Below the pieces are notes generated by a model. That model was not told the origin of the DNA, did no database searches, and saw only the letters and a list, made by a program, of their open reading frames with translations. Positions 247 to 1,956 of a DNA stretch of 64,000 bases are shown here, one piece after another. Source of the stretch: a virus (Duplodnaviria > Caudoviricetes); IMG/VR virus record IMGVR_UViG_3300031134_000001, positions 192,001-256,000 of that record; one strand, 5' to 3'. A program made the translations under genes and the position numbers. The first letter of the stretch is position 1. Every line of letters starts with the position of its first letter.

Positions 247-323
247 GGTGAGTGTAGCTCAGTTGGTCAGAGTCCTGGGTTGTGATCCCAGTGGTCGTGG
301 GTTCGAGTCCCATCATTCACCCC
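247..323 (+). tRNA. tRNA-His (GUG), G-1 present, CCA not fully encoded
   Basis: G-1 (247) opposite C73 (321), acceptor GTGAGTG/CATTCAC, anticodon arm CTGGG-TTGTGAT-CCCAG; the 3' end reads C-C-T instead of CCA. Confidence 0.93.
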
Positions 324-352
324 TAAGCGCTTTTGCGTTGTATCGTTTCATC

Positions 353-457
353 GGGTTTAGTACTGCTGCACCGCGGGTCGCCATGTCCGCACAGTACGAG
401 CGCAGCCTCGTAAAGTATTCAGATTGACTTTAAGGTCTCTTTACTGAACCCACCCCA
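353..457 (+). ncRNA. candidate structured RNA between tRNA-His and tRNA-Thr
   Basis: 10-bp closing helix GGGTTTAGTA/TACTGAACCC, three internal hairpins, possible GCTGC/GCAGC pseudoknot; no T-loop consensus. Confidence 0.5.
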
Positions 458-460
458 TTC

Positions 461-536
<76 letters not shown>

Positions 537-550
537 AAAAGAAAGTGGCC

Positions 551-796
551 ATGCTTAAATCCATTACGACCTTTACCAAAAGTTCCATCGCTTCGCTTAA
601 CTCAGCCCAGCTTAAAGCTTGTAACGATTTAGGCAGGGCAATTACAGGTGTGTGGAAAGTAAACGGCGATATTCGGGTAGTCCAGGTGGACAACAAAGAT
701 TACCCGATGTATTACTGGAACGAAGACAAGTGGGTTAGTTTTACGCCCCTTGCTTTGACACCAACAGATTCCATAAAACGTACTGATGAGTCGTGA
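551..796 (+). CDS. hypothetical protein (81 aa)
   Basis: ATG at 551 right after tRNA-Thr; the ORF-track start at 476 lies inside the tRNA. Confidence 0.65.
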   Translation: MLKSITTFTKSSIASLNSAQLKACNDLGRAITGVWKVNGDIRVVQVDNKDYPMYYWNEDKWVSFTPLALTPTDSIKRTDES

Positions 797-869
797 AAGT
801 CGACGCCTACTTCGGTAGGTAAGGTTGCAAATCCTTCGAAACGCTCTTAGAGCGTCTACGATATCGGGA
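771..869 (+). ncRNA. type I hammerhead ribozyme with expanded stem II region; predicted cleavage after C856
   Basis: Core CTGATGA (783-789), G790, C837, GAAA (838-841), stem III ACGCTC/GAGCGT, GTC triplet (854-856), stem I CGTA/TACG (779-782/857-860). Confidence 0.8.
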
Positions 870-1195
870 CTTAACAGTGGCATCTCGTTTCTCTGTCGCC
901 TCCCCTTTAAGGGCGGGTTTGATGGGGTTTAGCTTTAACCGATGATAAGGTTAATGAAACTGTACGACTATCGTTGTTTGCTCTAGCCTCCTATCAAGAG
1001 ACTTTAGTAAATGGGTTAGTAAGTTGTATGCAATCTGTCGGGTTTAACGTTAGCCAAAAGCAGCGGAGATCTCGGCTAAAATGCATGCAGCGCGTAGGAG
1101 ATCGATTGGTTGTGGCCACGGTCAGTCGGTGGTTCTACGTTAGTTGTGTGGGAACGAGCAGAAGAGTCGCGGCGTAGAGAACCGCTGCTTTTTTG
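857..1195 (+). ncRNA. candidate large structured ncRNA (copy A)
   Basis: No credible ORF; helices ACAGT/ACTGT and AAAAGCAGCGG/CCGCTGCTTTT followed by a U-tract; long-range 865-872/1164-1171 pairing. Confidence 0.55.
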
Positions 1196-1239
1196 CTTGG
1201 TTCCTTTTTTATGCTGTCAAATTTTTAAGGGAATACAAA

Positions 1240-1956
1240 ATGTGGCAATTACTCCTGCGTCTGTTTGGTGGCGGCAAATCAAAACAACAAGAGCCAGTCG
1301 ACACCCGGACCTTGGGTGAAATGGGTATCGTCAAAGCTAACAACATTACCGTAAACGGTAGTGAAGGTAGCGGCCTTAGTATCGGACATGGCAGCGTTAC
1401 TATTGGAAAGCTGAAAATCAAAGCTGCGGGTGAACTGGACTTCTGGATGGAAGGTGATGTCGTTTTTGTGAAAGCTAACAATCCCATTATCGAGAATCCG
1501 GACAATGTCAAGGTGCAAATCATCTCACCGCCACCCAAAGAGATTCAACATCTTAGTCCGCGTTCTATGTCGCGGCAGTCAGTTCGTCCGCCTAAGAAGT
1601 TTGACCCAACCACGACCGAACGTGCTATCAAACGTTTCGACGCGATCAACCGTAGTCGCCCTGACTCGCCGCGGTTATATCCTTACCCGGCGAATACAGG
1701 CAACGCCAATCGCCATGCTGTCATCGACGATTCGATCTACTACACGCCATCCCGTCCAATCACGGGTTACAACGCAGATACTGAGCCGCAGCGGTATAGC
1801 TGTGTCAATCCGTCGCCAGCGCCCGCAGTACCTTACAACCCGCCCTGCCCTGCGCCATCGTACAACAATCCGTCGCCGTCGTATTACAGCGATCCATCCC
1901 CGTCGTGGGATAGCGGTGGCTCTTCGGGTGGTTCCGACGGTGGCGGGTGCGACTGA
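1240..1956 (+). CDS. hypothetical protein with amphipathic N-terminus and Pro/Ser/Gly-rich tail
   Basis: AAGGGA RBS before ATG 1240; ends PSPSWDSGGSSGGSDGGGCD. Confidence 0.75.
   Translation: MWQLLLRLFGGGKSKQQEPVDTRTLGEMGIVKANNITVNGSEGSGLSIGHGSVTIGKLKIKAAGELDFWMEGDVVFVKANNPIIENPDNVKVQIISPPPKEIQHLSPRSMSRQSVRPPKKFDPTTTERAIKRFDAINRSRPDSPRLYPYPANTGNANRHAVIDDSIYYTPSRPITGYNADTEPQRYSCVNPSPAPAVPYNPPCPAPSYNNPSPSYYSDPSPSWDSGGSSGGSDGGGCD

Follow-up and report, generated by a model that had tools for sequence, protein, structure and literature searches.

The stretch of DNA examined here, 64,000 nucleotides (nt) long and referred to throughout as the window, comprises bases 192001-256000 of IMGVR_UViG_3300031134_000001, a 271,026-base-pair (bp) virus record of IMG/VR with direct terminal repeats, whose PHROG matches to phiKZ-type head and polymerase proteins assign it to the jumbo phages. 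Close to the start of the window a tRNA island comes to its end, with tRNA genes for Gln, Asn, His and Thr at 60-536 and one for Leu at 2753 (ARAGORN, Rfam). The tRNA-Thr gene is followed by an orphan 81-codon open reading frame (ORF; 551-796), a hammerhead-like element and, from position 857, the non-coding RNA (ncRNA) locus that is the subject of this report.

Here we present comparative evidence that positions 857 to ~1200 probably form a stand-alone gene for a stable and compact ncRNA of a new, hammerhead-processed family, with a hammerhead at its 5' end, a terminator at its 3' end and a four-domain fold that includes a kissing loop. A sequence-only reading of the same DNA had already proposed a large structured ncRNA at this place. 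Its call at the level of the gene was right, the RNA being both conserved and folded, but most of the detailed fold that it drew was wrong.

Conservation of the locus in three phage lineages

Homologues of the ncRNA were found in three lineages: the window phage together with two near-identical metagenome contigs; G002, a complete 272-kb IMG/VR phage found via capsid-related records, with a diverged hammerhead and ncRNA; and L015, a 226-kb record found by motif pattern, whose locus sequence is the same as that of the 269-kb Joint Genome Institute (JGI) contig L020. The two near relatives of the window phage, L002 and L003, are JGI contigs reached through the protein encoded downstream, and are 91-97% identical to the window overall. 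Across 440-1207 they differ from it at six positions, three of them inside the ncRNA. These three differences in ~350 nt compare with 3-12% in the flanking genes.

A common order of elements is seen in all three lineages, namely the variant hammerhead, an ncRNA of ~330-365 nt, a hairpin rich in GC that a U-rich tract follows, the sequence TTATGC(C/T)GTCAAA and a gene whose product starts MW..LFGG; the motif TTATGCCGTCAAA is also part of this common module. What lies upstream of the hammerhead differs by lineage. L020 has the homologue of window 324-460 immediately before the hammerhead, and in G002 some 215 nt of extra sequence stand between the two. Because the order is kept while the upstream sequence differs, we regard hammerhead, ncRNA and terminator as a conserved cassette.

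Other features of the surroundings also vary. The 324-460 segment of the window is a small structured element between tRNA-His and tRNA-Thr, homologous to L020:2380-2520 and L009:1150-1290; the insertion of tRNA-Thr and the orphan ORF separates it from the hammerhead in the window lineage. On the other side of the cassette, L002 carries an extra tRNA gene directly after the ncRNA terminator (L002:1266-1350; Ile, anticodon AAT, by ARAGORN), and the similarity between window and L002 ends abruptly at 1207 because of this insertion.

A covariance model of the family (R1, 286 positions) finds a single copy per genome, scoring 297 bits in G000, 233 bits in G002 and 256 bits in G006. The label "copy A" given to the element in the sequence-only reading, implying a second copy, is thus not borne out: there is exactly one in the genome. 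The features by which R1 is recognised are all present, that is, helices P1, P3, P5, P5b, P6 and P7/P7a, the invariant motifs, and placement between hammerhead and terminator.

Searches beyond these lineages returned no further members. The closest cultured phages are remote, with major capsid proteins 39% identical in Burkholderia phage FLC9 and 33% in Ralstonia phages RP12 and RP31, and the covariance model has no match in FLC9, RP12 or FLC1-1B (capsid proteins 33-39% identical). Searching with the major capsid protein, be it as one sequence or as an alignment, gave the same five related IMG/VR records; the four of these five that are fragments contain no ncRNA by BLAST or covariance model, a result that is uninformative, as these fragments are only 7-26% complete. 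BLAST of the window region, an 8-kb stretch of the window and the G002 region against 50,697 GenBank phages gave no homologue, and a related-locus search of IMG/VR with three flanking proteins found nothing. The pattern CTTAACAGTGG..GAAACTGTAC recovered only G002 and L015 among viral contigs and nothing among GTDB genomes, and a hammerhead-based pattern led to the same two records; four matches to the former pattern in metagenome contigs bear no resemblance to the locus and were judged to be due to chance. With the exception of P0002 and P0005, the homologues of the downstream protein lack synteny. The family is so far limited to a single clade of uncultured chimallin-type (nucleus-forming) jumbo phages. 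DNA metagenomes recorded as coming from straw, wastewater, dairy, food production, soil and phyllosphere (runs X2-X17) contain, in many cases, 20-58% of the words sampled from window positions 300-1500; the DNA runs aligned to the window itself were X6 and X25.

Comparative support for a four-domain fold

The elements of the ncRNA and of its proposed fold are as follows, in window coordinates.

857-1205, plus strand: the ncRNA, ~340-350 nt, from the predicted hammerhead cut to the terminator.
867-880, plus strand: invariant 5' leader motif GGACUUAACAGUGG, identical in all lineages and including the 5' strand of P1.
874-963, plus strand: domain 1, with P1 (874-878/959-963), P1a (881-883/954-956), P2 (887-889/931-933), P3 (891-897/921-927), P3a (898-901/915-918 and 903-905/911-913) and P4 (936-940/949-953, loop 941-948).
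967-1020, plus strand: domain 2, with P5 (967-970/1017-1020), P5a (974-982/1006-1014) and P5b (985-986/1002-1003 and 988-990/998-1000).
991-997, plus strand: conserved 7-nt loop of P5b, CUAUCAA in the window and CUGUCAA in the other lineages.
943-996, plus strand: kissing-loop pseudoknot of 5 bp between the P4 loop (UGAUA, 943-947) and the P5b loop (UAUCA, 992-996).
1023-1091, plus strand: domain 3, with P6 (1023-1029/1085-1091) lying within conserved AAGUUGU and GCAGC motifs.
1092-1140, plus strand: domain 4, with P7 (1092-1099/1133-1140) and the 13-bp P7a (1101-1113/1118-1130).
1150-1205, plus strand: lineage-specific terminator region, with a local hairpin at 1169-1188 (terminator scan) and a U-tract at 1189-1194, extendable to a hairpin spanning 1150-1205.

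The fold was assessed on a plain MAFFT alignment of four distinct sequences that had not been fitted to any structure, with a tested core of 55 pairs (P1, P1a, P2, P3, P5, P5b, P6, P7 and P7a). Standard pairs occupy 98.6% of the cells of this core. The sequence-only reading had named a lack of covariation as grounds for giving up the RNA; on the homologue alignment 25 of the 55 pairs are changed on both sides, against 1-7 in controls whose partners were slid by 1-3 columns, and none of 500 shuffles reaches the observed value on any of five measures. The strongest signal comes from P7/P7a, where 13 of 21 pairs are double-changed and 97.6% of cells are paired, and further double changes fall in P5 (3/4), P5b (3/5) and P6 (2/7, with pairing in 100% of cells). 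P1 (ACAGU/ACUGU), which the sequence-only reading had correctly placed as the closing helix of a 5' domain, is kept and invariant in the other two lineages. The minimum free energies of the three lineages correspond to z-scores of -2.76 (window, against dinucleotide shuffles), -2.27 and -1.95.

The hairpins P3a, P4 and P5a differ in length and sequence by lineage and appear in the same places when each lineage is folded separately, and the hairpin architecture of domain 2 likewise forms independently in each. Realignment to the covariance model brought no improvement for these three hairpins, which were compared by eye and by separate folding. An RNAalifold long-range helix at ~977-985/~1155-1163 was rejected in favour of P5a: two variants in sequencing run X18 (positions 1008 and 1011) fit P5a, and domain 2 folds locally everywhere. 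The apical UGGCCA of domain 4 (1113-1118) is invariant and palindromic.

Substitutions among the near-identical relatives provide a separate check. Six of the eight lie in helices, and all six keep pairing; the remaining two (1131 and 1149) are unpaired. L002 has its three changes (901, 915 and 918) in P3a, where one pair goes from U-G to G-C by changes on both sides and another from G-U to G-C; the X18 variants in P5a are 1008 T>C, which turns G-U into G-C, and 1011 A>G, which turns U-A into U-G; and variant 1122 T>C of run X6 changes a G-U of P7a to G-C.

Domains 1 and 2 are tied together by the P4-P5b kissing-loop pseudoknot, for which there is comparative support. The paired loops read UGAUA/UAUCA in the window and UGACA/UGUCA in G002 and L015, pair 946-993 changing from U-A to C-G, and all five pairs are standard in 4/4 sequences. 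By our own estimate, an 8-nt and a 7-nt loop would match in this way by chance in ~1% of cases. The P5b loop CUGUCAA of G002 and L015 is shaped like an Asp anticodon loop and the P4 loop CUGACAC like a Val-GAC loop; this likeness may be a coincidence, since the two loops pair together. The tRNA set of the phage (genome positions 190730-194837) includes Tyr-GTA, Asn-GTT and His-GTG, three of the four queuosine-type tRNAs; Asp-GTC is not encoded.

Two further helices, 962-968/1023-1029 and 865-868/884-887, are compatible with all lineages. The former competes with P1, P5 and P6; the latter, with double changes at two of its pairs, would be pseudoknotted with P1. Three lineages are too few to separate either of them from chance.

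Alternative helices in the window phage

The sequence-only reading had assembled the RNA differently, from an 11-bp helix between 1056-1066 (AAAAGCAGCGG) and 1182-1192 (CCGCUGCUUUU) with a U-tract, an inner helix 1131-1139/1173-1183, and a long-range pseudoknot between 865-872 (CGGGACUU) and 1164-1171 (GAGUCGCG). That this fold operates in the window phage, as a lineage-specific alternative in competition with P7 and the terminator, seems to us decidedly unlikely.

The two strands of the 11-bp helix are perfectly complementary, only 1.5% of 200 shuffled versions of the 349-nt RNA attain a Watson-Crick helix of such length, and the complement is unchanged in L002 and L003. It is not conserved beyond them, however: the best match in G002 or L015 is 4 bp, the 1056-1066 strand belongs to the lineage-variable interior that P6 encloses, and the helix would cross P6, which covaries. 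CGUAGGA (1093-1099) and CGUAGAGAACC (1173-1183) can each pair with 1131-1139, so that a switch would be possible, but the inner helix has no counterpart in G002 or L015, shares 1133-1139 with the 3' strand of P7 and would thus displace a helix with compensatory changes, and loses its first pair to the G1131A substitution; moreover, the inner and the 11-bp helix both claim C1182-C1183. As for the leader, seven of its eight positions do pair as proposed. A comparable leader-to-3' pairing exists in L015 (GACUU/GAGUC, possible there and in the window) but is absent in G002, and because the leader is invariant no covariation can support it.

The alignment shows unpaired bases at most cells of these helices in lineages other than the window's, and RNAduplex tests of the long-range pairings were not discriminating. 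The proposed helices may be lineage-specific alternative conformations, not conserved architecture. In particular, a long-range pseudoknot between the 5' and 3' ends is confined to certain lineages, and the pseudoknot that does have support is the P4/P5b kissing loop.

A predicted variant hammerhead ribozyme at the 5' end

Two further elements define the predicted 5' end of the ncRNA.

779-860, plus strand: variant type-I hammerhead, with stem I (CGUA 779-782/UACG 857-860) and the core segments CUGAUGA (783-789) and GAA (838-840).
841-846/850-855, plus strand: stem III of the hammerhead; the predicted cut follows C856, where a GUC triplet ends.

As the sequence-only reading had stated, the ncRNA is bounded on this side by a hammerhead, whose core, stem III and GUC triplet end at C856. 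The core is complete (C3 U4 G5 A6 N7 G8 A9, G12 A13 A14, A15.1-U16.1, H17) and identical in G002, L015 and L002 except at N7 (U/C, run X6 also having 787 T>C) and H17 (C/A). N7 and H17 are the two positions of the hammerhead core that are known to vary. Compensatory changes are seen in stem I, which is CGUA/UACG in the window and GGUA/UACC in G002 and L015, and in stem III, which is CGCUC/GAGCG in the window, CAUCUC/GAGAUG in G002 and CAUCUC/GGGAUG in L015.

The place of stem II (790-836) is taken by three hairpins, with G790-C837 as the only closing pair possible, and two of the three (IIa and IIb) show compensatory changes in G002 and L015. Their stems measure 4, 5 and 4 bp and carry, in that order, a 7-nt loop, a tetraloop and the 8-nt loop UUGCAAAU, a layout that loosely recalls a cloverleaf without its acceptor stem. 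No Rfam hammerhead model reaches its gathering score in the window, the best being RAGATH-1-hammerhead (RF03152) with 22.2 bits against 56.3 (E 0.53), and neither G002 nor L015 matches an Rfam hammerhead family at E up to 5.

Because a hammerhead is coupled to the ncRNA in every lineage, it is natural to suppose that the ribozyme releases the 5' end of the ncRNA, and cleavage after C856 is the best-supported candidate for the origin of that end.

The 3' end and the downstream gene

Beyond the terminator the locus continues with two elements.

1209-1221, plus strand: promoter-like motif TTATGCTGTCAAA, which precedes the next gene and is kept after the ncRNA in all three lineages.
1240-1956, plus strand: downstream gene, encoding 238 amino acids (MW..LFGGGK..) of no known family; the syntenic anchor in all lineages.

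The 3' ends of G002 and L015 have different GC-rich hairpins, each followed by a U-rich tract. Besides window 1209-1221 and 2874-2886, the TTATGC(C/T)GTC motif occurs at ~20 further sites of the genome; it follows GC-rich hairpins immediately and precedes genes, on their coding strand. In phiKZ, the late promoter used by the non-virion RNA polymerase is 5'-TATG-3', with the G as start site (PMC4666361). The motif looks like the window phage's version of that promoter, with its start at the G. Because of this fit, the downstream gene probably has a promoter of its own, which would make the ncRNA a separate product.

These observations bear on whether the RNA might instead be a cis-regulatory leader of the gene at 1240-1956, of the riboswitch or attenuator type, in which the terminator serves as the expression platform and no independent RNA is made. 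Its position directly upstream of the same gene in three lineages, the terminator hairpin at its end and the alternative pairings around 1092-1183 in the window are all what such a leader would show. Nevertheless, we consider it very unlikely, since the conserved TATG-type motif lies between terminator and gene and the same motif follows terminators genome-wide; the terminator hairpins of the lineages are unrelated, with no conserved terminator/antiterminator alternative to be seen; L002 even has a tRNA gene between the ncRNA and the downstream gene; and an RNA of 340 nt and four domains is far above the size of known aptamers and has no Rfam riboswitch or T-box match.

The orphan ORF on the other side of the cassette has its stop codon inside the hammerhead core and shows 100% identity to its counterparts in L002 and L003. 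Outside the window lineage it lacks homologues, there is no Pfam or PHROG match, and the sole variant seen (682 C>T, run X6) is synonymous; the ORF could be either a gene or part of the RNA island.

Family membership, coding potential and expression

The sequence-only reading could not place the ncRNA in a family, and the Rfam search agrees with this. Rfam 15 has nothing in 857-1205 at gathering thresholds; with E up to 10 the window gives only low-scoring, unrelated partial overlaps (mir-2006, WT1-AS_2), and the ncRNAs of G002 and L015 give nothing at E up to 5. Searches for tRNA and tmRNA (ARAGORN, Rfam) find the flanking tRNAs only.

GOLLD, ROOL and OLE, large ornate ncRNAs known from bacteria, phages and prophages, are similar in being multi-domain, non-coding, phage-encoded, located beside tRNA genes and rich in tertiary contacts, kissing loops among them. 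They measure ~500-800 nt, against ~340 nt for the ncRNA, which matches none of their Rfam models even at E up to 10 and also leaves the raiA model unmatched. It differs further in its hammerhead-defined 5' end and its restriction to one clade of nucleus-forming jumbo phages. GOLLD, ROOL and OLE are described as RNA-only homo-oligomers held partly by kissing loops (PMC12286853).

Another parallel is offered by the species 1 and 2 RNAs of phage T4 (rnaC and rnaD), stable RNAs of ~140 nt from the T4 tRNA gene cluster that are matured by host tRNA-processing enzymes. Compared by description only, they too are stable non-tRNA RNAs of a phage tRNA cluster, presumably cut from the same polycistronic precursor, but they are much smaller and depend on host enzymes, whereas the ncRNA has a cis ribozyme at its 5' end. 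Phage hammerheads and RAGATH-type RNAs share with the locus the CUGANGA...GAAA core, stem III, an NUH triplet, an open stem I and an adjacent structured RNA; the locus differs from them in the three hairpins at stem II and in that the adjoining ncRNA matches no RAGATH family. The ncRNA therefore resembles GOLLD/ROOL and the T4 species 1 and 2 RNAs in kind and is a member of none of these groups.

Could the RNA be catalytic, or the relic of a mobile element, such as an unrecognised ribozyme, an intron fragment or a guide RNA that moves with its hammerhead? Ribozymes are common among large RNAs that combine tertiary contacts with invariant unpaired motifs, and hammerhead and ncRNA do behave as one cassette in different upstream contexts. 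RAGATH-motif RNAs beside self-cleaving ribozymes include TnpB guide RNAs, as PMC11061315 reports. Yet the RNA matches no group I or II intron, RNase P, RAGATH, HEARO or omega-RNA family; no TnpB, IscB, reverse transcriptase or homing endonuclease gene is adjacent; the sequences on either side of it in G002 and L015 do not combine into a single reading frame; and there is a single copy per genome, always at the same locus. We hold this explanation to be highly improbable.

A small protein, for instance from the 67-codon TTG ORF at 974-1177, is effectively refuted and receives next to no credence from us: each lineage does have a stop-free stretch in frame 0 (counted from the first RNA base), but the translations are dissimilar (BLASTP E 0.03-0.9 at best) and the open register shifts in L015, the three codon phases take up substitutions about equally (54, 51 and 46 between window and G002), indel lengths are not divisible by three, no reading frame is conserved, and compensatory base-pair changes account for the variation, all in keeping with the sequence-only reading, which had seen no credible ORF here.

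A screen of sequencing libraries for the locus gave no usable RNA-seq support, and no conclusion about expression can be drawn from it. Run X18, labelled RNA-Seq cDNA and judged to be probably DNA, covers 814-1111 as two 151-nt unitigs at depth 6; one contig of this probable DNA run (814-963) spans the predicted cut site uncut. Raw reads of run X26 fall on the tRNAs only.

Discussion

We propose that the ncRNA would be made as the last unit of a long transcript of the tRNA island. The cis hammerhead would cut this transcript after C856 and leave a 5'-OH end, as sequence and covariation suggest, and an intrinsic terminator would set the 3' end just before the TATG-type late promoter of the next gene. 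Compensatory changes show that the RNA folds into four domains (P1-P4, P5, P6 and P7), with domains 1 and 2 linked by the kissing loop. It may act in this folded form, either binding a protein or assembling with other RNA. We favour function through the folded RNA over coding or cis-regulation because of the invariant single-stranded motifs GGACUUAACAGUGG, UGAAACUGUACG and AAGUUGU and the palindromic UGGCCA.

Several points weigh against this proposal. Three independent lineages are too few for a formal covariation significance of the R-scape type to be assigned; the interior of domain 3 and the 3' region vary between lineages; and alternative pairings fit all sequences (962-968/1023-1029 and 865-868/884-887), with the 11-bp helix as a further alternative. 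The three hairpins at the position of stem II and the lack of a match to any Rfam hammerhead model at threshold make ribozyme activity a prediction. Accumulation of the RNA, its cleavage and its mode of action are likewise predictions from sequence.

A more far-reaching idea is that the ncRNA assembles by itself into an RNA-only particle or dimer peculiar to nucleus-forming jumbo phages. Here the UGGCCA of P7a would be an intermolecular kissing or dimerisation site, the P4-P5b loop would lock the monomer, and the hammerhead would supply a 5'-OH for assembly or ligation. We regard this as unlikely; if true, it would make the ncRNA a smaller analogue of the ROOL, GOLLD and OLE assemblies. Nucleus-forming jumbo phages separate transcription from translation.

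Read as the separately made, hammerhead-processed RNA that we favour, the locus has several implications. For now the ncRNA is one more orphan structured phage RNA. At the same time, its covariance model can be used to annotate related phages, and the RNA itself is a compact new target for structure determination. The locus would illustrate how, in nature, a ribozyme punctuates the polycistronic RNA of a phage, and it is a well-defined case at a time when the tRNA islands of nucleus-forming jumbo phages are proving rich in unannotated RNAs.

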